This document shows, piece by piece, positions 5,327 through 49,158 of a stretch of DNA of 64,000 nt. Where the stretch lies: the NCBI GenBank assembly GCA_028868715.1, contig JAGWUB010000001.1, forward strand, positions 247,206 through 311,205, read 5' to 3'. This DNA comes from Patescibacteria group bacterium. Its GTDB lineage: Bacteria; Patescibacteriota; Minisyncoccia; Phycocordibacterales; UBA9973. Under the pieces are notes generated by a model. The model ran no database searches and was not told the DNA's origin. It saw only the letters and a program-made list of their open reading frames with translations. The stretch's first letter is position 1. Each line of letters starts with the position of its first letter. A program made the position numbers and the translations under genes.

Positions 5327-7093
5327 ATGAACTCTCCCGTTGATAAAATTAAGGAGAGACTGTCAATCGAAGAAGTAGTCTCTTCTTACATAAAGTTAGA
5401 AAAAGCAGGCGCAAACTTCAAAGCCAAGTGTCCCTTTCATAATGAAAAGACTCCATCGTTTTTTGTGTCGCCAGGGAGGGGAAGCTATTATTGTTTTGGT
5501 TGCAGTGCTTCGGGTGACATCTTTACTTTTGTTGAAGAATTCGAAGGTCTTGATTTTAAAGGCGCCTTAAAACTTTTAGCCAACAAGGCGGGAGTAATAT
5601 TAGAGAACTTTAATCCAAAGGAAGAGAGTGAAAAGGAAAAGATTTATCGGGTAATGGAAGAGGTAACCAAGTTCTTTGAAAATAATCTAAAAGAAAATCA
5701 GGAGGCAGTGGCTTACTTAAAGAGTAGAGGCCTTAATGATGAAAGTATAAAAAATTTCCGTATCGGTTTTATTCCTGAAGCTTGGCGTGACCTGCATGCG
5801 TATCTTACAAAGAAAGGATGGAATGAAGTTGAGATGGAACGTGCTGGTCTGGTCAAAAAAACTGAAAAAGGTTTTTATGATAGGTTTCGTAATCGAATTA
5901 TGTTTCCGATTTCGGACTCCAGCGGACGCGTCATAGCTTTTTCTGGAAGGTTGTTTAAAGATGATGAAAAATCAGCAAAATATTTAAACAGTCCTGATAC
6001 ACCGATTTTTAATAAATCTGCTGTTTTATACGGACTGGATAAAGCCAAAGAATCAATTCGAAAAAATAACTTTTCTATTTTAGTCGAAGGTCAAATGGAT
6101 TTGATATTGTCACATCAGGCTGGTTTTAAAAATACTGTAGCCACTTCTGGCACGGCATTATCTGACGCCACAGTGAGTAAAGAAAATGTAGTCTCCAACC
6201 TAGGCCTCGTACGTAGACTTTCAGAAAATATAGTCTTGGCATTTGATGCTGACAAAGCTGGCTTAAGTGCAACCTTGCGGGCAGGGAAAATTGCTTTATC
6301 ACTTGGCATGGATGTGAAAGTCGCAAACATAGAAGAGGGCATTGACCCCGCAGACTTGATTTCAAAGAACGGGGTGGATGCTTGGCGCGAAGCCATTAGA
6401 GGCTCCAAGCACCTGATAGAGTTTTTGCTTGCCAGAGTATTGAAGGATGCAAAGGAAGACAATCGTAAAGCGGGCAGAGAGATAAAAGATAAAGTACTAC
6501 CTTTTATAGATGCGGTTGATAGCTCTATCGAACAAATGCATTTTATAAAAAAAATATCCGATATTTCGGCAATTCCAGAAGAAGCGCTCAAAGATGATTT
6601 AAAGAAAATACAACAAGAGTTAAAATTTGAAAAACGTGAAATAGATGAGATAAAAAGCACAGGAAGTAAAATATTTAAAAAAGATTATATTGAAAGACAT
6701 TTGCTCGGCATTATCCTTTGGCAGAAAACCATAGCTAGCCCTAGTATTGATATAGATGAGACAATGACAGAGTTAGTTCGCATTTTAAATGTTAAAGAAG
6801 CAATTTTATTAGAAAAAACAACCAACGATAGAGAAGACCTAATTTTTGAAGCAGAAGTTTTCTATGGCGGAGACGAAAAGAATATGAATTTAAAAAAAGA
6901 TGTGAATGAGTTAATGTTAAACTTAGAGGAAGAATATCTAAATGAAGACAGATTTAAAAAAATGCAGGAATTGCATATATATGAAGAAAAACGAGACCTA
7001 GAGAAGGGTAGACAAATATTAAAAGAAATAAATGAGATTAACAACAAAATACAAAATATTAAAAATAGTCGTATAAATACTAAGTTTATCTAA
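5327..7093 (+). CDS. dnaG: DNA primase
   Basis: It has a CHC2 zinc finger ([30 protein letters not shown]) and Toprim-like segments ([19 protein letters not shown]). Confidence 0.9.
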
Positions 7094-11488: not shown

Positions 11489-11564
11489 TGGAGCCGGAAG
11501 AGGGATTCGAACCCACGACCTTCGCTTTACAAAAGCGTTGCTCTACCAACTGAGCTATTCCGGC
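11489..11564 (-). tRNA. tRNA, probably tRNA-Thr (anticodon UGU)
   Basis: The minus-strand cloverleaf has acceptor GCCGGAA/TTCCGGC, a GTTCGAATC T-loop, anticodon loop TTTGTAA and an encoded CCA. Confidence 0.8.
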
Positions 11565-20229: not shown

Positions 20230-20526
20230 AGCCTTGTGTTAGATAGCTACTCTTCGATTTATATCGGAGAGAGGAAAGTCCGAACACATAGCCCTTTGGG
20301 TTAAACGTAGCGGGTAATTCCCGTCGTCCGCAAGGATAGAGGTGCGAACAGAGACGAGCTCCTTTAGTGGAGGTGAAACGGCAAAATCCTTACGCGTGTG
20401 CAAGATCGTGCTCCGACCTCGGTCGGAGAGAATCGCTTGAGTCCTGTAGTAATGCAGGACCTAGACAAATTGCTATCGCTCCGACCTCGGTCGGGGTCAC
20501 AAAATTCGGCTTATAGACACAAGGCT
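20230..20526 (+). ncRNA. rnpB: RNase P RNA (bacterial type, compact)
   Basis: P4 strands GAGAGGAAAGTCCGAACAC and ACAAAATTCGGCTTATA. A GGTGAAACGG motif. The P1 helix closes as AGCCTTGTGT...ACACAAGGCT. Confidence 0.85.
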
Positions 20527-20534
20527 AAAACATG

Positions 20535-21614: not shown

Positions 21615-21688
21615 GGGCCCTTAGCTCATCTGGCTAGAGCGCCTCATTTGCAATGAGGAGGTGGCAGGTTCGAGTCCTGTAGGGTCCA
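21615..21688 (+). tRNA. tRNA-Ala (anticodon UGC)
   Basis: Cloverleaf with acceptor GGGCCCT/AGGGTCC including the G3:U70 Ala identity pair. Anticodon loop TTTGCAA. Confidence 0.88.
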
Positions 21689-21708
21689 CCGAAAAGTTAG
21701 TTATTTTT

Positions 21709-21783
21709 TCCGGGGTAGCTCAGCGGTAGAGCGGTCGCCTGTTAAGCGATTGGTCGTAGGTTCGATCCCTACCCCCGGAGCCA
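21709..21783 (+). tRNA. tRNA-Asn (anticodon GUU)
   Basis: Cloverleaf with acceptor TCCGGGG/CCCCGGA, anticodon loop CTGTTAA, T-loop TTCGATC and an encoded CCA. Confidence 0.88.
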
Positions 21784-30089: not shown

Positions 30090-30512
30090 ATGGCAAACAA
30101 AGGCCCAAAATACAACCTCGAAGAATTACTGCTCCTTTTTAAAAGGAGTATTCGAGATATAATTAAAAAGGAAGGATTTAAAGATGATCTTACCTTTTCG
30201 CAAGTAGAAGTTTTACGTTTTGTTGGTCTTTCTGGGAAAAGGACAATGAAGAACATCGCTGACTATTTAAAAATTACTCCACCGTCAGCCAGCCAAATAA
30301 TTTCTGAAATGGAAAAGAAAAACTTGATCAAAAGAAAAAGTGACGAAAATGACCGCAGAGTTGTATTTATCATTTTATCCGATAAGGCCAAAAAACTTTT
30401 TACTTCACTATCCGACCACAAAGATGCTGTTTTTGAAAAAATGATTTCAAAATTAAATGGTTCGGATCGAAAAACCCTTGAACGTATTATTAGAATTCTT
30501 ATTACAGAATAA
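30090..30512 (+). CDS. MarR-family transcriptional regulator
   Basis: Winged helix motif SQVEVLRFVGLSGKRTMKNIADYLKITPPSASQIISEMEKKNLIKRKSDENDRRVV. Confidence 0.85.
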   Translation: MANKGPKYNLEELLLLFKRSIRDIIKKEGFKDDLTFSQVEVLRFVGLSGKRTMKNIADYLKITPPSASQIISEMEKKNLIKRKSDENDRRVVFIILSDKAKKLFTSLSDHKDAVFEKMISKLNGSDRKTLERIIRILITE

Positions 30513-30552
30513 TTCCAGTAGTAGAATAAGTTCACTACAGGACAAACAATTT

Positions 30553-31641
30553 ATGAAACAACACATTAAAACTTTACATCATCATCCTAAACGAGTAATT
30601 ATTATTTCTTTGACAATTGCTCTTATTATAGGATTTTTAGGCTACTTGGCAATAAGTAAAAGTCGAAATTTTACTCCAAGTGATAACAGTGCATTGATAA
30701 ACCCAAACGAAAATTCTCCTTCCGTACGTAACCTTACTCTTGGATTTCTTGCTGCTGGCAGAATTAAATCTGTCTCGGTTAAAGCAGGTGATGTAGTCAA
30801 AAAAGGTCAAGTTCTAGCCACTCTCGACGCCGGAAATGTAGTGGGAGCCCTAGACCAAGCTAAAGCCTCTTATGCCATAGCCCAGGCTAATTATCAAAAA
30901 ATAATTAACGGAGCAACAGGCCCGACCATTGATGTGGCCAAAGCTACCGTGAATACCGCTAAAGTTAGTTTAAATGAAATAACCAAACAACAAGAAGTTT
31001 TAGTGAACAATGCCTATAAGTCTCTCCTTAATTCTTCCATTCAAGCGGTAGCCGTGAGTGATTATGGTGCTATCACTGCTCCAGTGATAACTGGAACTTA
31101 CGACTGTAGCAACGAAGGTGTTTACAACTTAAATACTTACACTTCCTCCAACGGTACTTCTGTATATTACACAGGTCTTGAAACGGGATCAGTATTATCA
31201 ACAAACGCTCCTAAAGCAATTGGAACCTGCGGTTTATTCTTGTCGTATCCTAGTTCAGCCGGAATACTTACACCTGTAGCTCAATTTGTTATTCAAATAC
31301 CAAACAAAAGTGCCGCAAATTATACTAGTAATTTGAACGCCTATCAGCTGGCATTACAGAATAAAGAACAAGCAATTGCCGGAGCACAAGCAACTCTTGA
31401 CCAAGCCAATGCAAATTTAACTTCCATAGTAACTACTGCTCGCCCCGAAGACGTAGCTACGGCTCAAGCTCAAATGGAAAATGCCAACGGAGCACTAAAA
31501 ATCGCACAGGCAGCCTATGACAACACAATTATCGTAGCTCCTGCTGATGGAACTGTGACTTCAGTGGCGATTACTCCCGGACAGATAGCGGTGCCAAATG
31601 CGTCGGCTATAGAATTTATCAGTAATAGTTCTTCAAATTAA
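30553..31641 (+). CDS. membrane-fusion (HlyD-like) protein, N-terminal type: TM helix, lipoyl half and long alpha-hairpin
   Basis: Motifs GRIKSVSVKAGDVVKKGQVLATLD and IVAPADGTVTSV with long coiled-coil segments. I chose the internal ATG at 30553, after the marR stop. Confidence 0.65.
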   Translation: MKQHIKTLHHHPKRVIIISLTIALIIGFLGYLAISKSRNFTPSDNSALINPNENSPSVRNLTLGFLAAGRIKSVSVKAGDVVKKGQVLATLDAGNVVGALDQAKASYAIAQANYQKIINGATGPTIDVAKATVNTAKVSLNEITKQQEVLVNNAYKSLLNSSIQAVAVSDYGAITAPVITGTYDCSNEGVYNLNTYTSSNGTSVYYTGLETGSVLSTNAPKAIGTCGLFLSYPSSAGILTPVAQFVIQIPNKSAANYTSNLNAYQLALQNKEQAIAGAQATLDQANANLTSIVTTARPEDVATAQAQMENANGALKIAQAAYDNTIIVAPADGTVTSVAITPGQIAVPNASAIEFISNSSSN

Positions 31642-31646
31642 AAGTT

Positions 31647-32297
31647 ATGGAAAAAGAAACAAAACAAACTGCAAAAAATGTACACCTTTTTAAAAGGCCT
31701 TGGATGCATAGTCTGATCGCCTTTTTAGTTATCTTTGGATTACTCTCAGTATTTTTGTTTTGGCAGGCAAATCGAAACACAGTTTATATTGAAAATGCAG
31801 ACCTAGAGGCGCCAATCATAAACTTAACTGCTTCTTCACCTGGAGTGTTAAATGCTTTATACGTCAAAGAAGGGGACAATGTGGCAGCTAATACTCAGAT
31901 AGCCTTAGTTGGTTCACAAATTATTTCTACTCAAAATGCTGGAGTGGTAGCTTCAGCGCCAATGTTACTTGGGGCATACTTTATGCCGGGACAAACCGTA
32001 GTATCCATCGTCAACAATCAAGAAATGAAAGTGGTCGGACAAATAGAAGAAACTAAAGGATTGAGTGATTTAAAAGTAGGACAAAAAGCAGCTTTTTCTG
32101 TGGATGCTTTTCCTGGAAGAATGTATGAAGGCCTAGTGTCTGAAATTAGTCCTGTCTCAAATGACAATGGTATTATTTTTTCTATTTCGGATCAACGTCC
32201 AATCAAAAAATTTGATATTAAAGTAAGCTTTAAGGTGGCAGACTATCCTGAGTTAAAGAGTGGTATGTCTGCCAAGATAACAGTTTATACTAAATAA
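31647..32297 (+). CDS. membrane-fusion (HlyD-like) protein, C-terminal type: TM helix, lipoyl, beta-barrel and membrane-proximal domains
   Basis: Motifs GVLNALYVKEGDNVAANTQIALV, VVGQIEETKGLSDLKVGQKAAFSVDAFPGRMYEGLVSEISP. Confidence 0.65.
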   Translation: MEKETKQTAKNVHLFKRPWMHSLIAFLVIFGLLSVFLFWQANRNTVYIENADLEAPIINLTASSPGVLNALYVKEGDNVAANTQIALVGSQIISTQNAGVVASAPMLLGAYFMPGQTVVSIVNNQEMKVVGQIEETKGLSDLKVGQKAAFSVDAFPGRMYEGLVSEISPVSNDNGIIFSISDQRPIKKFDIKVSFKVADYPELKSGMSAKITVYTK

Positions 32298-32302
32298 AAA
32301 AT

Positions 32303-33799
32303 ATGGAAGGGCTCGATGACAAAAAAAAAGGATCCAACCTGCGTTGGTGGATATTACTTACCGTTATAATTGGAACTTTTTTAGGTCGCCTAGATCAAAC
32401 GATAGTGAACTTGGCTCTGCCAAAAATCATTAATGATTTTGGCATTTCGGTTACCGCGGCTGGATGGATAGCTACAGCTTATATTTTAGCTAATGCTGTT
32501 TTCGTGCCGATTTGGGGTAAATTGGGCGATACTATTGGAAGAAAAAAAGTTTACATTATTGGTTTCAGTATTTTTATTTTCGGTTCTGTCTTGGCGGGAC
32601 TTTCATGGAATCTTTCTTCAATGATTGTCTTTCGGGTGATTCAAGCTATAGCCGGATCAGCTGATTATCCGACAGCCATGGCGATATTAGCCGTGACTTT
32701 CAAAAATGGAAAAGAACGTGCGCAAGCACTCGGCATTTGGTCCTCTTCTTTCGCCGCCGCGGCTGTTTTTGGACCACTTTTAGGTGGTCCTTTGATAGAC
32801 AATTTTGGCTGGCGTTCAGTTTTTCTAATCAATCTTCCAATTGGTATTTTAGGTATCATCATGGCCGTTCGTTTTATCAATGAATCACGTTCAGAACAAA
32901 AAACCACATACTTTGATTGGTGGGGATCGCTTTCATTGGGAGGTATGCTTTCTATGTTGGTGCTCGTTTTAGACAAAGGATTAACTTGGGGTTGGTTTTC
33001 AACCGCAAGTCTAATATGTTACTTTTTGATAATTTTCCTCTTGTGGTTATTTATCAGAATAGAAAAAAATGCCAAAGACCCGATTGTGGATTTGCGTTTT
33101 TTCAAAATTCCTGCTTTTGTCAATACTCTGATTAATAACTTTATTGTTTTTATGGGTATGATTGGCGGAATTTTCTTGATACCTATATTTGCGCAAACGT
33201 TTCTCGGGTATACCGCTACTCAATCAGGATATCTTTTTATTCCGATGGCTGCAGCCTTGATGCTAGCAGCTCCAATAGGAGGCGCACTGACTGGGCGAGT
33301 CCAAGCGCGCTACGTGATTTTTGCCAGTACCTTGGTGGCAGCCATCGGTATTTATTTCTTCTCCTTTCTTGATCCCAAGTCCGGTGCTCTGGCTATAATA
33401 ATTCCGCTTTCGGTCATGGCTTTTGGTCTTGGTTTTGGAATGGCGCAACGAACGAATGTTATTGCTTCCGTAGTAAACCCAAATGAAATCGGCATTGCTT
33501 CTTCAATTTTGGCCCTAGCTCGCAATATTGCTGGCGCTTTTGGAATTGCTATTTTTGGAACAATTTTAACAAACCGAGTTTATACAAACGTAATGTCTAT
33601 AAACAATTTTAGCGTTATTCGTAGTACCAATCCGATTGATATAAGTAAATACGTTGGACTAGTAGAACTAAAAGCTCAAGTCAATGCTTACAACTATGTT
33701 TTTTTGGTTGCATCCATTATAGTTTTTGTCGGAGCCTTTGCGGTGCTCTTTATGAAAATTAAACATGAACGCACGGATATAACTGTGCACGTAGAGTAA
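32303..33799 (+). CDS. MFS drug:H+ antiporter, DHA2 (EmrB/QacA-like, 14 TM helices)
   Basis: Motifs LPKIINDFGISVTAAGWIATAYILANAVFVPIWGKLGDTIGRKKVYIIG and VFRVIQAIAG. 498 aa. Confidence 0.85.
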   Translation: MEGLDDKKKGSNLRWWILLTVIIGTFLGRLDQTIVNLALPKIINDFGISVTAAGWIATAYILANAVFVPIWGKLGDTIGRKKVYIIGFSIFIFGSVLAGLSWNLSSMIVFRVIQAIAGSADYPTAMAILAVTFKNGKERAQALGIWSSSFAAAAVFGPLLGGPLIDNFGWRSVFLINLPIGILGIIMAVRFINESRSEQKTTYFDWWGSLSLGGMLSMLVLVLDKGLTWGWFSTASLICYFLIIFLLWLFIRIEKNAKDPIVDLRFFKIPAFVNTLINNFIVFMGMIGGIFLIPIFAQTFLGYTATQSGYLFIPMAAALMLAAPIGGALTGRVQARYVIFASTLVAAIGIYFFSFLDPKSGALAIIIPLSVMAFGLGFGMAQRTNVIASVVNPNEIGIASSILALARNIAGAFGIAIFGTILTNRVYTNVMSINNFSVIRSTNPIDISKYVGLVELKAQVNAYNYVFLVASIIVFVGAFAVLFMKIKHERTDITVHVE

Positions 33800-33817: not shown

Positions 33818-35356
33818 CTAGGCGAAGCCAGGGAAGAAATCAATCTTTATATTTTTTCTTTTTACTCCCATAGACCTGAGTGTGTCTTCAAACGCAGTAA
33901 CCATACCACGTGGTCCCGAAATATAAAAAGTTTTATTAAGATAATCAGAAACTTCTCTTTGGATAATTCGTGCATCAACAAAGCCATTGTACATAAAGCT
34001 GCCAACGGGCACCTCGCCCTTATCAGTGACGGCATAAATAGTTTTTATGCCGAGTTCTTTTTGGGCTTTATCAAATACCTCTTTATAGGCTATGTCGGAA
34101 ACTTTTTTATTTGAATAAAGTAAGGTAATATCTCTTTTTTCATTATTATCCAATAAATATTGGATCATACTTCGGAAAGGCGTGATGCCGATACCGCCGG
34201 CGATAAATACCAACCCTCTCTTTTCAGTTGTTGGCAAGACAAAGTCTCCAGACTTTTGAGCAACGACTATTTCTCCCAATTTTGGTAATGCCAATAATCT
34301 ATTTTTAAAACTACTCGGCTCAGGATAGAATTTTACTCCTAGATGTATTTCCGGTTCTGTGGGCGATGAAGCTAAAGTAAAGTAACGACGATTACCACGC
34401 GTATCGGGGCTACGATGCTTGAGTGTCCATTCCATATATTGCCCAGGTCTAAAATTAAACTTTTTATCTTTGTAAAAAATAAAATCAAATGTATCTGTAC
34501 CTACTTTTACACGTTCTTTCAACTTTAGAAAAAGTTTTTCCTTTGGACTGACGATATAGGCAAAAATGTTTCCCACCACCAAAGCCAGTTCTGGCGTAGA
34601 ATAAAATGGCCCGATTTGTAGTGCTGGGGCAGACAAAATACCCACCAATACACCAAAAGCCATACGCCACCACCTAGTGGTGGGAGAGGTGAGTGGTTCC
34701 GTTAACATCACAAAAGCAAAGAAAAGTATGGCTGTATTGTCTAGGGTTGATATCAAAGTATGGACAATATTTTGGGCACTCGCTCCTTTTTGTGCTGACA
34801 AGATGATAATTGTGGTTATTACAGAAATTAAGAAACTAAAAAACAAATCCCAATGACGAAGTTTTCTTATAATTAAAAATCCACCTATAATCACGACAGG
34901 CAACATTGCCGGCGTTCCGATCCACCAACTAGCGGATTGATTTATGGTGAAGGCCACTAGAACAAGAGCAATCGCCGCAGGGTTAAAAATATGTTTTCTC
35001 CCAATTGCAAAAATATACTTTGAAGCCATCGCCCATACGCTAGCCCAAAATGCTAGTGGTAAAAACTGTGAGTACACACCACCTTGAGCGGGGGTGATAA
35101 TAAAAAACAAAATTAAAGCCGTTATATAAATAGATTCTACGTTGGTCGGAGCTTCATAGACATAAGCAAAGATAATATTGGTTATGTAAGATACCAATAA
35201 AATAATCAAAAAAGATGCCATTAGATCAATGGGTGTATACGGTAAAAACTTGAAGATTGATAGAACCACAGCGGAACCCAAAAAGAAACACAGAACATAA
35301 AGAACTATGCGATACATCGTTATTCTATTTAGAAAATTGTCTATGAAATTAAGCAT
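33818..35356 (-). CDS. polytopic membrane protein (about 270 aa, 7-8 TM helices) fused to a cytoplasmic ferredoxin-NADP reductase-like FAD/NAD(P)-binding domain
   Basis: FAD site RRYFTLASSP (RxYS/T). NAD site GGIGITPFRS (GxGxxP). The C-terminal motif is YISGPRGM. The hydrophobic N-terminal half contains HIFNPAAIALVL. Confidence 0.7.
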   Translation of the reverse strand: MLNFIDNFLNRITMYRIVLYVLCFFLGSAVVLSIFKFLPYTPIDLMASFLIILLVSYITNIIFAYVYEAPTNVESIYITALILFFIITPAQGGVYSQFLPLAFWASVWAMASKYIFAIGRKHIFNPAAIALVLVAFTINQSASWWIGTPAMLPVVIIGGFLIIRKLRHWDLFFSFLISVITTIIILSAQKGASAQNIVHTLISTLDNTAILFFAFVMLTEPLTSPTTRWWRMAFGVLVGILSAPALQIGPFYSTPELALVVGNIFAYIVSPKEKLFLKLKERVKVGTDTFDFIFYKDKKFNFRPGQYMEWTLKHRSPDTRGNRRYFTLASSPTEPEIHLGVKFYPEPSSFKNRLLALPKLGEIVVAQKSGDFVLPTTEKRGLVFIAGGIGITPFRSMIQYLLDNNEKRDITLLYSNKKVSDIAYKEVFDKAQKELGIKTIYAVTDKGEVPVGSFMYNGFVDARIIQREVSDYLNKTFYISGPRGMVTAFEDTLRSMGVKRKNIKIDFFPGFA

Positions 35357-35358
35357 TT

Positions 35359-36109
35359 TTATATCTTTGTGTAATTATTAAAACCCTTGGTCATTGTGGC
35401 TATACCATTTTTATCAATTGAGTATCCCTCAAATCCACTCAATTTTTCTATGAAAAATATACCATTTTTACCCATAGCAAAAGCTGCGGTCGCATATTTG
35501 TCAGCTTCCAGAATATTTGGTCCGACAACCGTTATACTTACTATGTCCTTTAAATGATCATTTTTATCCTTGGGATTGTATACGTGTTCTCCGCGAATAT
35601 AGTTGCCAGAGGTGGCTATACCATTATCAGTTAAATAAACTTTTTTTTACAACCTCTCTTTTTTTATTAAAGGGGTTTTGAATGCCAATGCACCATGGTT
35701 CATTTTTATCATTTTTACCGCATGCTTGGATGTCTCCTCCTGCTTCTACATAAAAATTTTTAATACCATGACCCTTTAAAATATTACTGGCATTAAAAAT
35801 AGACCAACCTTTTACCATCCCCGAAGGATCATAAGCTCCTGTTGGGGTAACAATATCAAAATACCCATCTGTTAATTCTTTAGTTTCCTCTGAAAGCCTA
35901 AAGACTGTTTTCATATCCTCGCTCCAGTCTCTCTCATTTATTTTTTTATTGTTAATTGCCGTAATCTCACTATCTTCTTTATAGGTGCTGAATTTTTCAT
36001 CTACATATTTAAAATAATTAAAAACCTCATCAAAAAACTCCTGTTTTGCCTCGGAGTCCCTAACCTCAAGAATAACGGGTGTACCCATAATGATTTGAAC
36101 CTGCTTCAT
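35359..36109 (-). pseudogene. apbE: ApbE-family FAD:protein FMN transferase, interrupted by a +1 frameshift at an A8 homopolymer
   Basis: The N-terminal ORF 35627-36109 (MGTPVILEV...AGGDIQACG) is ApbE-like. The downstream region 35359-35640 encodes the ApbE C-terminus (SITVVGPNILEADKYATAAFAMGKNG) in the -1 frame. The frames meet at the T8 tract at 35641-35648 on the plus strand. Confidence 0.75.
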
Positions 36110-36115
36110 TTTTAT

Positions 36116-36619
36116 TTAATTTAATGCTTGCGAGAGAGCACTTGCTAAAGACTCACGAAATGCGGCACTCGTGAATGATGCTCCAGAAACAGTGTCTACG
36201 TTAGAACCTTGCGCAGTAATAGCCTCACTGATTAGGTATGGCATTGCGAATGAATTTATGCGAATTGAATTCTGTCTATCTTGTGGGTAGTCTAAAAATT
36301 GTACATCGGTGATTTTGCCACCAGAAATTATAGCTTTGACTTGCACATTGCCATAGGTCGCATCTGCCACACTACCGGTATAACTTCCGTTTTTATACTT
36401 TCCAGTATTTGCGATAGGTGTCTGTGTTGGTTTTGGTTTTGTAGAAGTGGGGGATTTTGTTGTCGTTGTATTATTGTATTGTGGGAGCGATAAGGTAACG
36501 TTTGGCTTGTTGGGCTCAGGTGCCAAGGTAACTGGAGCTTCCGTTCCAATGATACGTACATATAATACATATGCCGTAAACGTGAATATTAACAATAAGG
36601 ATAAGGCCGCTTTTTTCAT
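36116..36619 (-). CDS. exported FMN-binding domain protein (ApbE flavinylation substrate; NqrC/RnfG-like FMN_bind)
   Basis: N-terminal signal or anchor, a Thr/Pro-rich linker, then the FMN_bind pattern GSYTGSVADATYGNVQVKAIISGGKITDVQF...AQGSNVDTVSGASFTSAAF. DTVSGAS matches the Dxx(s/t)gA(s/t) flavinylation motif. Confidence 0.75.
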   Translation of the reverse strand: MKKAALSLLLIFTFTAYVLYVRIIGTEAPVTLAPEPNKPNVTLSLPQYNNTTTTKSPTSTKPKPTQTPIANTGKYKNGSYTGSVADATYGNVQVKAIISGGKITDVQFLDYPQDRQNSIRINSFAMPYLISEAITAQGSNVDTVSGASFTSAAFRESLASALSQALN

Positions 36620-36665: not shown

Positions 36666-37844
36666 TTAATCTTCTACGTGAAAATCTGAGTTATCAGATG
36701 ATGACCTAGGGGATTCTATGCCAGGTGTAGTTTGATGGTTTTCATTTTCCAATAGATTATCATCTTCAATATCTCCTCCATTATCAACACCCATATCATC
36801 TTCAATTTCTCCTTTTATTACATTAGATAGCATCAATAATTTTATTGAATTAACGTCAGTTATGACTAGTTGAAATCTATTAATTGCATTTGCGTAATCA
36901 CTGGAAGTCATAAATGTTTTACCTTCCTGTAAAGAAGTTTCTGCTAGCGCAAGCTTGCTATCAATCTGAGTTTGTATATTTGTTGAAAGTTTTAATTTTT
37001 CTTTTTGGTACGAAAGTTTTATTAAATTTAATAAATTTTCTGCCGCAGTTTGTTTACCAAGCGCAGAAGCAGAATCTGGTGTCGTTGATGTAGCAGAGCT
37101 ATCTCCTTCATTTACCCCAAGGTTTAAATCAAACTTTGCTTGGCCGTCCATCTCTTTATTCTTAGACTCCTCTAGGGTAGAAACCAATTTGTCAGTTTCA
37201 TTTTTAGTTTCTGTGTTAGTATTCGACTGCTCTGAAAGATTTTTTAATACATCTTGATAAGCCCTAAGAGAAGCCTGCAATCTTATATTTAAATCAGAAG
37301 AATTTCTAGATTTATCTTTTTCCAAAGCAAGCTCATTTGCGCTTGTGTTAAATTCATCAATCTGACTTTTTATTTTAGTTTCCAAAATAACTCTTTTGGA
37401 TTCGTCAAAATTATTTCTAGCAACAAGCTTTTGGGCTTCTTTGAGCCTACGTTCCACCAGTCTTTCTCGCCATTCTGTTTTTTCTTCTTTTGTTAAAGCA
37501 AATATACCAGCGACTGGTTCATTCACGGATGTTTTTATTCCGTAAAGTAGATCACCAGGCACAGCCCTTTCTGCAAAAGCAGAAGTACCACCAGTGATAA
37601 TGATAATAAGAATTACGATAAATGCGGGAACAAATTTACTTTTATTATTCATAAAATTGTATTTTTTTATGTTTTGATAATAATAATATATACGACTTGT
37701 ATTTGATTTTACTATATTGTCATGCGTTAAATTTTGAACGGGAGAAACTTTATCGAGCAAATTAGTGCGCATTAATGCCTTCTCACTTTCAGTGAGTTTA
37801 ATATTTTTTACCGCCTTAATTATAGATTCAAATTCTTTATCCAT
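36666..37844 (-). CDS. putative anti-sigma factor (single TM helix, extracytoplasmic coiled-coil, acidic C-terminus)
   Basis: It overlaps the ECF sigma stop by 8 nt. TM helix FVPAFIVILIIIITGG. The remainder is long, helical and low-complexity. Confidence 0.5.
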   Translation of the reverse strand: MDKEFESIIKAVKNIKLTESEKALMRTNLLDKVSPVQNLTHDNIVKSNTSRIYYYYQNIKKYNFMNNKSKFVPAFIVILIIIITGGTSAFAERAVPGDLLYGIKTSVNEPVAGIFALTKEEKTEWRERLVERRLKEAQKLVARNNFDESKRVILETKIKSQIDEFNTSANELALEKDKSRNSSDLNIRLQASLRAYQDVLKNLSEQSNTNTETKNETDKLVSTLEESKNKEMDGQAKFDLNLGVNEGDSSATSTTPDSASALGKQTAAENLLNLIKLSYQKEKLKLSTNIQTQIDSKLALAETSLQEGKTFMTSSDYANAINRFQLVITDVNSIKLLMLSNVIKGEIEDDMGVDNGGDIEDDNLLENENHQTTPGIESPRSSSDNSDFHVED

Positions 37845-38355
37845 TTTTATTATCTACATTTTTTAATAATTCTCGAAGTTTTTCTCTTGCTCGGCTTACT
37901 CTTACTGATATTGTATTTTCTCGCTCGTCCAGCAATTCAGCCATATCCTTTGGACTCATATCCTCTACATATCGTAGCACAATAATCTCTCTGTCAGAGG
38001 GTGATAATTTATCCAATAATGAAAGAAAAATTGAATAATCAAGATAAGTTTCCATGTTGTCTTTTGCCGCGATAGATTCAAAAAATCCATCAGGGAGACT
38101 ATTTTCGGTGATACTTTTACTTTTTCTCCAAAAATCAATAACGGTATTTTTTGCAACAGTATAAATAAAACTCTTATGACTGCCTACCTCCTCTTTTTTT
38201 AAATGGTTAAATACTTTTATAAAAACGTCCTGAGCAAGGTCTTTGGCCACCTCTCTATCTCCCGTCTTAAAATAGCAAAAGCGGAAAATAGCATCTCCAT
38301 AGGTGTCATAAAGTTCAATGAACATAGTTCTTTTGTTGTCTTCTTCAGTATCCAT
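37837..38355 (-). CDS. ECF-family sigma-70 factor
   Basis: Region 2 (DLAQDVFIKVFNH) and region 4 (REIIVLRYVEDMSPKDMAELLDERENTISVRVSRAREKLRELL). Confidence 0.85.
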   Translation of the reverse strand: MDTEEDNKRTMFIELYDTYGDAIFRFCYFKTGDREVAKDLAQDVFIKVFNHLKKEEVGSHKSFIYTVAKNTVIDFWRKSKSITENSLPDGFFESIAAKDNMETYLDYSIFLSLLDKLSPSDREIIVLRYVEDMSPKDMAELLDERENTISVRVSRAREKLRELLKNVDNKNG

Positions 38356-45679: not shown

Positions 45680-46030
45680 ATGCAAGAATTTAAAGTATTT
45701 CAGGAGGAAAGACCATGGGGTAATTTCAGACAATTTACTCACAATACTCTTTCAACTGTAAAAATTCTTACGCTGAAGCCAAACCAAGCATTAAGCCTGC
45801 AAAGCCATGCTAAACGTTCAGAATTTTGCAGAATAATTAGTGGTAGTGGTATTATAGAAATAGGGGATAACAAGTATAATGTAAAGGAGGGCGACGAATA
45901 CAATATTCCCATAAACACCAAACATCGAGTTAGCGCTGGGGCATTAGGGGTTTCTTATTTGGAGATAAGTATTGGAGATTTTGAGGAGAATGATGAAGTT
46001 CGTTACGAAGATCAATATGGCCGCGCCTAA
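45680..46030 (+). CDS. cupin protein resembling the type II phosphomannose isomerase / ManC C-terminal cupin
   Basis: SLQSHAKRSEFCRIISGSG...HR...EISIGDFEENDEVRYEDQYGR. The terminal E-D-D-I-x-R-x-E-D-x-YGR-like signature is present. Confidence 0.65.
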   Translation: MQEFKVFQEERPWGNFRQFTHNTLSTVKILTLKPNQALSLQSHAKRSEFCRIISGSGIIEIGDNKYNVKEGDEYNIPINTKHRVSAGALGVSYLEISIGDFEENDEVRYEDQYGRA

Positions 46031-47222
46031 GAAAAAAACAATAAAAAAACCTGTCCGCAAGACCAAGAAAGTAAAACCCGTTAAGAAAAAAACAGTAGTA
46101 AAAAGAACTACTAAAAAAGTTGCTAAGAAAATACTAAAAAAGCCAATTAGCAGGAAGAAAAAAATTATTCCCCTTATTAAAAAGTTTAAGGGTAACCCAA
46201 TAGTAGGGCCGACCCACAATTCATTCTGGGAAGGGCAGGCAGTTTTCAATCCAGCAGCGATAGTGCACGATGGACGAGTGCATCTTTTTTATCGCGCGTT
46301 GGGGCATGATGGCATATCACGCTTGGGGTATGCTTCAAGCAAAGATGGCATTCATTTTGATGAGCGACTTCCTTATCCTGTTTATGTTGCTGAAAATAAA
46401 ATAGAAGCAGAAAGTCATTATCCATATACTTCACCCGCACGACTTGTTTATGATACGACCCTATATGCCTCTGGTGGTGGATGGGGAGGTTGTGAAGATC
46501 CGAGAGCAGTAAAAATTGAAGGACGTATATACATGACCTTCAACATGTTCAATGGCTGGGAATCCATGCGAGTAGCATTTACTTCTATCGACGAAAAAGA
46601 TTTGTCTCTCAAAAAATGGGATTGGAGTAAGTTTAGTTATCTTTCTCGCCCCGGTGATAGACAAAAAAATTGGGTTTTGTTCCCTGAAAAATTTAATGGG
46701 AAATTTGCTCTTTTCCACAACCTAGACAAAGGAGATCCCCATAAGGTACATATTGCCTTTTTAAATAAGCTTGATATGAAAGAAACGCCCTCCATGAAAG
46801 ACGCTCCAGATCCACATACTTTACCTGATCATATAGTCAAATGGCACAATCGCACACGTAGCGCTGCAGCACCGCCAATAAAGACGAAATATGGTTGGTT
46901 GTTGTTTTACCATGCAATGGACAAAGATGATCCTGGTCGCTATAAATTAGGGGCACTCTTGCTTGATCTCAAGGATCCTACCAAGGTTCTTTATCGATCT
47001 TCACGTCCAGTGCTTGAGCCAAATGAATGGTATGAAAATGACTGGAAGCCGGGAATAATTTATGCGAGCGGAGCGGTCGTGAAGGGAGAAACACTTTTTC
47101 TTTACTATGGTGGCGGTGATAAACATATTGCTGTGGCATCTGTAAATTTAGACGAATTTCTCCGTAAATTAAGAAGCAATGGAAACGCAGTTTTTTCAAA
47201 AAAATCTGTTGTCACTATATAA
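46017..47222 (+). CDS. GH130-family glycoside hydrolase/phosphorylase (beta-mannoside-active family) with a Lys-rich N-terminal tail
   Basis: AVFNPAAIVHDGRVHLFYRALG, GGCEDPRAVKIEGRIYMTFN and WHNRTRSAAAPPIKTKYGWLLFYH. The N-terminal 60 aa are KKP-rich. Confidence 0.75.
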   Translation: MAAPKKKTIKKPVRKTKKVKPVKKKTVVKRTTKKVAKKILKKPISRKKKIIPLIKKFKGNPIVGPTHNSFWEGQAVFNPAAIVHDGRVHLFYRALGHDGISRLGYASSKDGIHFDERLPYPVYVAENKIEAESHYPYTSPARLVYDTTLYASGGGWGGCEDPRAVKIEGRIYMTFNMFNGWESMRVAFTSIDEKDLSLKKWDWSKFSYLSRPGDRQKNWVLFPEKFNGKFALFHNLDKGDPHKVHIAFLNKLDMKETPSMKDAPDPHTLPDHIVKWHNRTRSAAAPPIKTKYGWLLFYHAMDKDDPGRYKLGALLLDLKDPTKVLYRSSRPVLEPNEWYENDWKPGIIYASGAVVKGETLFLYYGGGDKHIAVASVNLDEFLRKLRSNGNAVFSKKSVVTI

Positions 47223-47226
47223 TCTC

Positions 47227-49158
47227 ATGTTTGTTGTAAAAAGATCTCACCACAATCCAATTCTTGTTCCAGATAAAGACCATTACTGGGAGTCTTTTGC
47301 TACGTTTAATATGAGTGTTGTTAAAAAGGGTAAAACTTTTTATGGAGTTTATCGTGCAATTTCAGCCGAAGATGAATTACGTACACCTAAGCGAGTTTCA
47401 ATAATAGGCGTTGGGAAAAGTAAAGATGGTATAGATTTTGAAGACCGAGTTCCACTCATTACCCCAGAAAAAGAATGGGAAAAGTATGGTTGTGAAGATC
47501 CCCGCGTTACTTTTTTTGAAGGAAAATACTATATATTCTATACAGCACTCTCGCATTATCCATTTGACGCCGATGGAATTAAGGTTGCCGTAGCAATAAC
47601 TGATGATTTTAAAAAAATCAAAGAACGTCATTTGGTAACTCCGTTCAATGCCAAAGCTATGTCTCTTTTTCCGGAACGTATCAATGGCAAGGTGACTGTA
47701 ATTGTGGCGATCCATACAGATATGCCTCCAGTGAAAATTGCAGTTGTGCAAGTCGATGAGATAGAGCAATTATGGGACCCAGATTTTTGGAAAGAATGGT
47801 ATAAAGACATAGACAAACACTCCATTGATTTAAAAAGATCTCAGTATGACCACATTGAAGTCGGTGCTTCTCCGGTTAAAACTAAAAGTGGGTGGCTTTT
47901 GGTATACTCACATATCCAGAATTATTTTTCTTCTCCTCGAAATTTGGATCGAATCTTTGGAATTGAAGCCGTGTTGTTGGATTTTGCTAATCCCTTGAAT
48001 ATCTTGGGGCGTACGAATGGCCCAATGCTAGTACCCAGTGAGCCCTATGAACTTTTTGGATACATGAGTAATATTATTTTTCCTTCTAGCGCAATCTTAG
48101 AAAAGAATAAATTGTCTATATATTATGGCGCCACCGATACGACAGTTTGTATGGCTCACGTAAATATAGATGATCTTGTTTCCACAATGCGTACAGAGAC
48201 TAAGGCATCATGGCATTTTGAGCGCTCTGAACTGAACCCCATTATCTCTCCTATTAAGGAAAATCCATGGGAAGCAAAGGCAACTTTTAACCCCGCGGCT
48301 ATTAGGATAGGAGATACAACTCATATATTATATAGGGCACTTTCAGAGGACAATACTTCCTCTATTGGGTATGCATCGTCAAAAGATGGACTACAGATTG
48401 ATGAAAGATTTTCAGAACCTATATATGTCCCAACAGAGAAATTTGAATTAAAAAAAGTTAATGGAGTAAATTCTGGCTGTGAAGATCCACGGTTAACTAA
48501 AATAGGCACGAATATTTATATGTGTTATACAGCATTTGATGGGATTGGCCCACCACGAGTAGCCATTACCTCAATTACAGAGAAAAATTTTTTAAAAAAG
48601 AACTGGCAATGGACAAAACCGATTGTAATTACCCCGGAAGGATTTGACGACAAGGACACCTGTATTTTTCCAGAAAAAGTGAATGGTCAGTATTTTATTC
48701 TGCATCGTGTTGGTGGAGAGATGTGTGGAGATTATTTTAAATCACTTAATTTTAGCACTCAAAAAGTTAAAAAATGTATCAGAATTATTGGTCCTAGAAT
48801 AAATACTTGGGACAGTCTGAGGGTCGGCATATCGGCGCCACCACTAAAGACAAAATACGGTTGGTTACTTTTATATCACGGTATTTCTAAAAGCAGTAAT
48901 ACTTATCGTATCGGGGCAGTACTTTTGGATCTCAATGATCCTGCTATTGTTCTCTCTCGTACTACTGACCCGATATTTGAACCAGAAAAACCATATGAAA
49001 AATCTGGAATTATAAATAACGTTGTTTTTCCATGTGGGATGACCGAGCAGAACGGTGTGCTGTATATTTATTACGGTGGAGCCGATACAGTCGTAGGAGT
49101 TGCTACGATGGAGCTTGATATTATTCTGAAAGCCCTTACCCGAGACATTAAAAAATAA
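47227..49158 (+). CDS. tandem double-GH130-domain protein
   Basis: Two complete GH130-like repeats: HNPILVP...GCEDPRVTFFEGKYYIFYT and ELNPIISP...ATFNPAAIRIGDTTHILYRALS...GCEDPRLTKIGTNIYMCYT. Confidence 0.75.
   Translation: MFVVKRSHHNPILVPDKDHYWESFATFNMSVVKKGKTFYGVYRAISAEDELRTPKRVSIIGVGKSKDGIDFEDRVPLITPEKEWEKYGCEDPRVTFFEGKYYIFYTALSHYPFDADGIKVAVAITDDFKKIKERHLVTPFNAKAMSLFPERINGKVTVIVAIHTDMPPVKIAVVQVDEIEQLWDPDFWKEWYKDIDKHSIDLKRSQYDHIEVGASPVKTKSGWLLVYSHIQNYFSSPRNLDRIFGIEAVLLDFANPLNILGRTNGPMLVPSEPYELFGYMSNIIFPSSAILEKNKLSIYYGATDTTVCMAHVNIDDLVSTMRTETKASWHFERSELNPIISPIKENPWEAKATFNPAAIRIGDTTHILYRALSEDNTSSIGYASSKDGLQIDERFSEPIYVPTEKFELKKVNGVNSGCEDPRLTKIGTNIYMCYTAFDGIGPPRVAITSITEKNFLKKNWQWTKPIVITPEGFDDKDTCIFPEKVNGQYFILHRVGGEMCGDYFKSLNFSTQKVKKCIRIIGPRINTWDSLRVGISAPPLKTKYGWLLLYHGISKSSNTYRIGAVLLDLNDPAIVLSRTTDPIFEPEKPYEKSGIINNVVFPCGMTEQNGVLYIYYGGADTVVGVATMELDIILKALTRDIKK

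Follow-up and report, generated by a model that had tools for sequence, protein, structure and literature searches.

A gene for ApbE (FAD:protein FMN transferase) on the minus strand of a Patescibacteria genome (35359..36109) is interrupted at a run of eight adenines. The initial annotation offered three explanations for this break – an assembly or sequencing error, a phase-variable slippage switch gating flavinylation of the neighbouring FMN-binding protein, or a decaying pseudogene. We asked which of these best accounts for the locus, drawing on the 64-kb stretch of DNA that surrounds it (hereafter the window), on separately assembled sequencing runs, and on orthologous loci from relatives.

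Position and effect of the frameshift

The reading frame that begins the gene (35627..36109, minus strand) encodes a 160-aa product made up of ApbE residues 1-156, four out-of-frame residues (SLFN) and a TGA stop; its C-terminal end reads ...NPFNKKREVVKKSLFN. The +1 frame (35359..35646, minus strand) supplies residues 155-249 of the repaired protein; it stays open from 35646 down to a TAA at 35361-35359 and translates as KKVYLTDNGIATSGNYIRGEHVYNPK...VVGPNILEADKYATAAFAMGKNG...TKI. Read from just past another TAA at 35649-35647, which overlaps the start of the homopolymer, the same frame gives KKVYLTDNGIATSGNYIRGEHVYNPKDKND...VVGPNILEADKYATAAFAMGKNG...TKI. The homopolymer itself is T8 on the plus strand at 35641-35648 – A8 on the coding strand – and the minus-strand codons around it are ...AAT AAA AAA AGA GAG GTT GTA AAA AAA AGT TTA TTT AAC TGA. 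A junction between the frames is possible only between the +1-frame TAA (35649-35647) and the 0-frame TGA (35629-35627), within 17 nt (35646-35630) that start with the last six adenines of the tract.

Each part of the gene matches the ApbE profile on its own. Against Pfam PF02424 (cut-off 25.6 bits), the 160-aa ORF scores 95.1 bits, with a best stretch that ends at profile position 184, and the downstream frame scores 33.5 bits over positions 185-258. Deleting one adenine yields a single 249-aa ApbE that scores 139.1 bits. The repaired protein aligns over residues 1-247 of 249 with 2931 database proteins at E <= 1e-10, and the break is therefore not a chance pattern of open reading frames. Its top homologues are proteins of 249-254 aa from Nomurabacteria and Paceibacterota that are named FAD:protein FMN transferase, the nearest full-length relative being 84% identical; PDB chains of ApbE and FmnB match at E values of 7e-18 to 1e-12. 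The identification of the gene as ApbE thus stands, as does the reading of the downstream frame as ApbE, for which the initial annotation had named a profile search as the deciding check. Re-reading the sequence also gave the same coordinates that had been proposed for the end of the first ORF (35627), the T8 run (35641-35648) and the end of the C-terminal half (35359). The frames on either side of the tract agree with a +1 shift caused by one adenine too many, and the expected repaired length of about 250 aa came out at 249.

The shift separates the N-terminal part of the protein from its catalytic centre. The conserved ApbE catalytic centre is Ser241/His257/Asp285 in Vibrio cholerae numbering (PMC12052999), and alignment to the V. 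cholerae and Escherichia coli ApbE structures places Ser167, His175 and Asp203 of the repaired protein at these positions. All three residues lie past residue 156, beyond the A8 tract and in the +1 frame; no one continuous frame holds the catalytic centre, and the 160-aa product lacks Ser167, His175 and Asp203. The downstream frame contains no ATG, GTG or TTG before the methionine of AFAMGKNG, from which only 38 aa would be made, and the locus thus does not encode the enzyme in two pieces. Under standard decoding an inactive 160-aa fragment would be expected. The shift also leaves 270 nt untranslated ahead of the next gene. No second ApbE was found within the 64-kb window, which is the part of the genome in view here.

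A flavinylation-associated gene cluster

The interrupted gene sits in a cluster whose other members are intact. On its upstream side lies a gene (36116..36619, minus strand) for a Pfam PF04205 protein that bears a membrane anchor at its N terminus, named FMN-binding protein by NCBI (MDE2399680.1). The ApbE target motif is Dxx[s/t]gA[T/S], and this protein has in its sequence a DTVSGAS motif that its orthologues keep. We presume it to be the flavinylation substrate. On the other side, starting 2 nt after the ApbE stop codon, a gene at 33818..35356 (minus strand) encodes a protein of 512 aa in which an NqrB/RnfD-like membrane domain (PF03116, E 1.5e-9) is fused to an NAD-binding domain (PF00175, E 4.9e-16), hereafter RnfD/FNR. 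Orthologues of the fusion are 508-512 aa long, and in relatives the RnfD/FNR gene overlaps or abuts the ApbE stop codon.

The NQR/RNF-like flavinylation system is defined as a flavinylation-associated cluster that includes a protein with N-terminal PF03116 and C-terminal PF00175, and it has been described mainly from Actinobacteria and the candidate phyla radiation (Meheust et al. 2021, eLife, PMC8238504). The 512-aa fusion has this domain order and adjoins the ApbE and FMN-binding protein genes.

Further upstream, Pfam matches identify a DUF5667 protein (36666-37844, minus strand) and an ECF-type sigma factor (37837-38355, minus strand). The order of the block on the minus strand is ECF sigma, DUF5667, FMN-binding protein, ApbE and RnfD/FNR, and it is the same in the close relatives examined (loci L083, L084-86 and L087), where the sigma factor and DUF5667 genes always lie directly upstream of the other three. 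The DUF5667 protein is possibly an anti-sigma partner, and the constancy of the pair in close relatives suggests that the NQR/RNF-like module is under ECF control.

The ApbE encoded here belongs to a subfamily of ~250 aa (loci L003-L099) that we found in Patescibacteria, Chloroflexota and Mesorhizobium, and that starts directly at a conserved MGTP core. The N-terminal anchor of the FMN-binding protein would put its FMN domain outside the cell, while the neighbouring ApbE is leaderless.

Elsewhere in the window we observed several features unconnected with flavinylation. Its RNA genes (20231-20529, plus strand; 11489-11564, minus strand; 21615-21783, plus strand) comprise an RNase P RNA, tRNA-Thr(TGT), tRNA-Ala(TGC) and tRNA-Asn(GTT); the RNase P RNA is of bacterial class A (122 bits) and is ~300 nt long, against a model of 367 positions. 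Two adjacent GH130 paralogues of the beta-1,4-mannooligosaccharide phosphorylase family (45972-47222 and 47179-49158, plus strand) adjoin a mannose-6-phosphate isomerase-like cupin (45680-46030) – a sugar-salvage cluster that is unusual for a small Patescibacteria genome.

Origin of the extra adenine

A comparison of orthologous loci, which the initial annotation had proposed, proved informative about the ancestral state of the tract. We extracted the codons at the site from 95 loci, comprising 80 from species-representative genomes, 10 from JGI metagenome contigs and five from contigs of the closest relatives. None of the 95 is frameshifted; all encode ApbE in a single frame. The closest relatives (L083, 84%; L084-86, 78%; L003/L091, 76%) carry A7 within GTT GTA AAA AAA GTT TAT or GTA ATA AAA AAA GTA, while the window reads GTT GTA AAA AAA A GT TTA T – exactly one adenine more. 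The aligned codons on this basis show the event to be an A7-to-A8 insertion in a coding run, with A7 (GTA AAA AAA GTT) as the ancestral state. Other close relatives have GTA AAA AAG, GTG AAA AAG, ATC AAA AAA or ATA AAG AAA, so that the tract varies among A7, A6, A5G and AAGAAA. What is conserved at the site is the Lys-Lys (or a single Lys) of VVKKVYL, and not the nucleotide tract.

The A8 allele recurs outside the window. Logan contigs from two separately assembled runs encode exactly the 160-aa truncated product: a 10.8-kb contig from SRR32006837 is 100% identical to the window over 9777 nt, a contig from SRR32006839 is 100% identical over 1439 nt, and both continue unbroken through an A8 tract. 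In SRR32006838 the locus is present, on a contig that ends short of the site. The only allele observed among these assembled contigs and the window is A8. SRR32006837 and SRR32006839 have adjacent accession numbers and probably belong to the same study, perhaps to the same site; they are hence not fully independent. The repaired 249-aa sequence is absent from a collection of 15 billion proteins, which holds no intact allele of this lineage. Searching JGI metagenome contigs for the site with lineage-specific flanks and A7, A8 or A9 gave no exact-pattern match, the lineage itself being absent from that collection. In the deposited metagenome-assembled genome (MAG), the proteins flanking ApbE have consecutive NCBI accessions (MDE2399679.1 and MDE2399680.1), which suggests that ApbE received no protein record, as with frameshifted genes.

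The window, with 37% GC and a coding density of 94%, is rich in similar tracts. It contains 14 runs of A8/T8, 91 of A7/T7 and one of A9, with an A7/A8 tract about once in every kb. Apart from the ApbE site, ten tracts of A8 or A9 (nine A8, one A9) and 68 of A7 lie on the sense strand of genes, all in ORFs that stay open. In-frame A8 tracts of this kind begin, for example, at 6547, 7232, 29394, 40409, 40495 and 44659; the longest homopolymer of the window is the A9 at 32321-32329 (plus strand), which encodes Lys-Lys-Lys in frame 18 nt into an MFS transporter gene (32303-33799). A gene map and gap analysis of the window identified one unexplained gap of >250 nt beside a truncated gene, that at the ApbE locus. 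Neither the gap analysis nor Pfam checks of adjacent same-strand ORF pairs found another split gene in the window; the paired ORFs encode different families or complete proteins. The pair at 30457-31641 and 31647-32297 (plus strand) was considered as a split membrane-fusion protein and rejected, as each member has its own N-terminal membrane segment. These are two consecutive HlyD/membrane-fusion-like proteins, whose genes follow that of a MarR-type regulator and precede that of the MFS transporter.

We examined the downstream part of ApbE for signs of decay. Relative to the nearest relative, dN is 0.086 downstream of the tract and 0.085 upstream, and dN/dS is 0.058 downstream and 0.062 upstream. 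Lineage-unique changes in the downstream part number six in each of the two lineages, and every residue there that is invariant in a 26-sequence alignment has been kept. The FMN-binding protein and RnfD/FNR genes are full length. Neither the dN/dS comparison nor the relative-rate tests detected relaxed constraint in the downstream part; with the nearest relative at dS ~1.4 such tests have little power and cannot date the lesion. The preserved downstream part fits a very recent lesion, and an artefact or an expressed recoded gene would leave it just as intact. In the RnfD/FNR fusion itself we counted 37 lineage-unique amino-acid changes, against 20 in L083 (binomial p = 0.033, uncorrected and with no control genes). 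This excess may be taken as a weak hint of relaxed constraint after the loss of ApbE, or may simply reflect a faster lineage.

How, then, is the extra adenine to be explained? If it were a homopolymer miscall in the consensus, the true genome would carry A7 and an intact ApbE. A one-base change in the length of a homopolymer is a classic error site, the downstream part is free of decay and the partner genes are intact, and the two runs that carry A8 are probably one project in which a platform bias could be common. Such an error would, however, have to recur in two separate assemblies, and their contigs match the window at 100% identity for 9.8 kb and 1.4 kb, a sign of accurate reads. Systematic homopolymer errors would moreover have broken more genes than one, and the other long sense tracts of the window all remain in open frames. 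Long-read errors also shorten long homopolymers more often than they lengthen them. We therefore regard a sequencing or assembly artefact, one of the three options initially put forward, as unlikely, and the change appears to lie in the DNA rather than in the reads. A quite unlikely alternative is that the A8 is real and leaky, a 'pseudo-pseudogene' in which RNA-polymerase slippage (giving A7 or A10 mRNA) or +1 slippage of tRNA-Lys on A AAA AAA A supplies enough ApbE. The flavinylation module would then have been kept working, and purifying selection on the downstream part would continue. The enzyme may be needed only in small amounts, and preservation is complete in both the downstream frame and the partner genes. 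A8 slippage has been cited as restoring the frame in ~10% of product (apoB), and A8 is apparently productive in some IS elements (PMC1088944). Selection against A/T runs typically begins at nine bases, the length from which a large share of the genomes studied show it (Baranov et al. 2005, PMC1088944). By the logic of that study, the in-frame runs that other genes of the window tolerate, nine of A8 and one of A9, suggest inefficient slippage at this length in the organism. That the downstream part is preserved tells nothing on this point given a nearest relative at dS ~1.4, and the arrangement is conserved in no relative.

Dedicated recoding signals were not found at the site. Predicted RNA structure does not rise above the shuffled background (MFE z = -0.37, 131 nt), there is no stop or rare (slow) codon at the shift site, and no SD-like stimulator is suitably placed: a GAGG lies 5-8 nt from the AAA codons, with a spacing unlike that of prfB, and is part of the coding sequence for a conserved Arg-Glu-Val. 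A classical -1 slip on A AAA AAA would run into a stop within a few codons, so that only a +1 event or an A7 or A10 transcript would restore ApbE. Programmed frameshifting or slippage is recognized by a conserved shift and a conserved slippery sequence, and here none of the 95 loci is shifted and the tract is variable. The same comparison bears on a contingency switch, in which selection would favour a poly-A tract that alternates between A7 (on) and A8 (off) and so gates flavinylation of the FMN-binding neighbour. The lesion does lie in a mutable homopolymer, and a single-base reversion would, judging from the sequence, restore function. Contingency tracts are unusually long or over-represented and are maintained at the nucleotide level, whereas this one is short, lies mid-gene, and is of ordinary frequency. 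It is the ancestral Lys-Lys coding run with one base added, which relatives interrupt or shorten freely (AAA AAG, ATC AAA AAA, AAG AAA). The off state is absent from all 95 orthologous loci, contigs pass unbroken through the site, and the protein collection holds no on allele. The phase-variable switch initially suggested thus finds no support, and we consider it the least credible of these readings. More broadly, we regard it as very improbable that A8 is genuine and functionally tolerated, be it as one position of a reversible on/off state or with RNA-polymerase slippage reading through it at low output. Were it so, an episymbiotic Patescibacteria cell would tune flavinylation of an NQR/RNF-like extracytosolic electron-transfer module by means of a poly-A tract.

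A probably inactivated ApbE and its known counterparts

We favour a genuine, young, single-base insertion from A7 to A8 that inactivates ApbE, and hold this reading to be probable. Replication slippage most likely added one adenine within the Lys-Lys codons of the gene in what is now the dominant genotype of a Patescibacteria population. The insertion would truncate ApbE after residue 156 and remove the three residues of the catalytic centre, giving a loss-of-function allele of the flavin transferase that serves the adjacent NQR/RNF-like electron-transfer module. Some full-length ApbE could still arise, in small amounts, by unprogrammed RNA-polymerase slippage at A8 (A7 or A10 mRNA), a leakiness that would be adventitious rather than designed. 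The lesion appears young because nothing else in ApbE or its partner genes has decayed. Of the initial options the pseudogene comes closest, as a genuine inactivating indel and a very young pseudogene allele, though the term 'decaying' overstated the case: a second lesion is absent, and conservation is as high downstream of the tract as upstream.

The consequences are mainly ones of annotation. The gene is best labelled a frameshifted ApbE (a pseudogene or disrupted allele) and not a 160-aa protein, and the finding has little significance beyond that. In metabolic reconstructions of this MAG, working flavinylation of the NQR/RNF-like module should not be assumed, unless another ApbE is encoded elsewhere in the genome. 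If reads proved to be heterogeneous in tract length, the locus would be a modest case of a homopolymer inactivating a gene in a population of the candidate phyla radiation. At 37% GC and with about one tract of A7 or longer per kb, such lesions are expected from ordinary mutation. We found nothing in the literature specific to homopolymer pseudogenes in Patescibacteria.

The repaired protein resembles the ApbE/Ftp family (PF02424; V. cholerae 6NXI, E. coli 2O18 and 4XGV, Listeria monocytogenes FmnB 7ESA) in its full-length Pfam match, in the TSG-x-Y, H-x-Y/I-x-P and E-A-D-x-x-A-T motifs that contain the Ser/His/Asp centre, and in the position of its gene beside that of an FMN-binding protein with an [S/T]GA[S/T] motif. 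It differs from the family in that the gene is frameshifted here and its 160-aa product lacks the catalytic half. Classical secreted lipoprotein ApbEs are ~330 aa long, whereas the subfamily here, at ~250 aa, lacks both signal peptide and lipobox; cytosolic ApbEs have been described (PMC12052999). The cluster matches the described NQR/RNF-like type (PMC8238504) in having PF03116 fused to an NqrF-like PF00175 beside ApbE and a protein with an FMN-binding domain, and departs from it in its broken ApbE member and in the ECF sigma/DUF5667 pair that is syntenic upstream.

The site resembles prfB-type programmed +1 frameshifting and phase-variable simple-sequence contingency loci only in that the full product requires a +1 shift or a tract one base different in length. 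Unlike prfB, it lacks a conserved shift site, an in-frame stop or rare codon and a correctly spaced SD-like stimulator; unlike contingency loci, its tract is short, mid-gene, of ordinary frequency and not conserved in relatives. The site also resembles the homopolymer-indel pseudogenes of AT-rich or reduced genomes (PMC1088944; reviewed in PMC5009743), in which a single-base change in poly-A length splits a well-preserved gene and a minority of transcripts could in principle regain the frame by slippage at that run. Compared with those of PMC1088944, the run here is A8 and so below A9, the shifted state is not conserved, and the case is known from sequence alone. The interrupted ApbE is thus of a known kind – a homopolymer-indel pseudogene inside an already described type of cluster, and an ordinary mutational outcome in an AT-rich genome.
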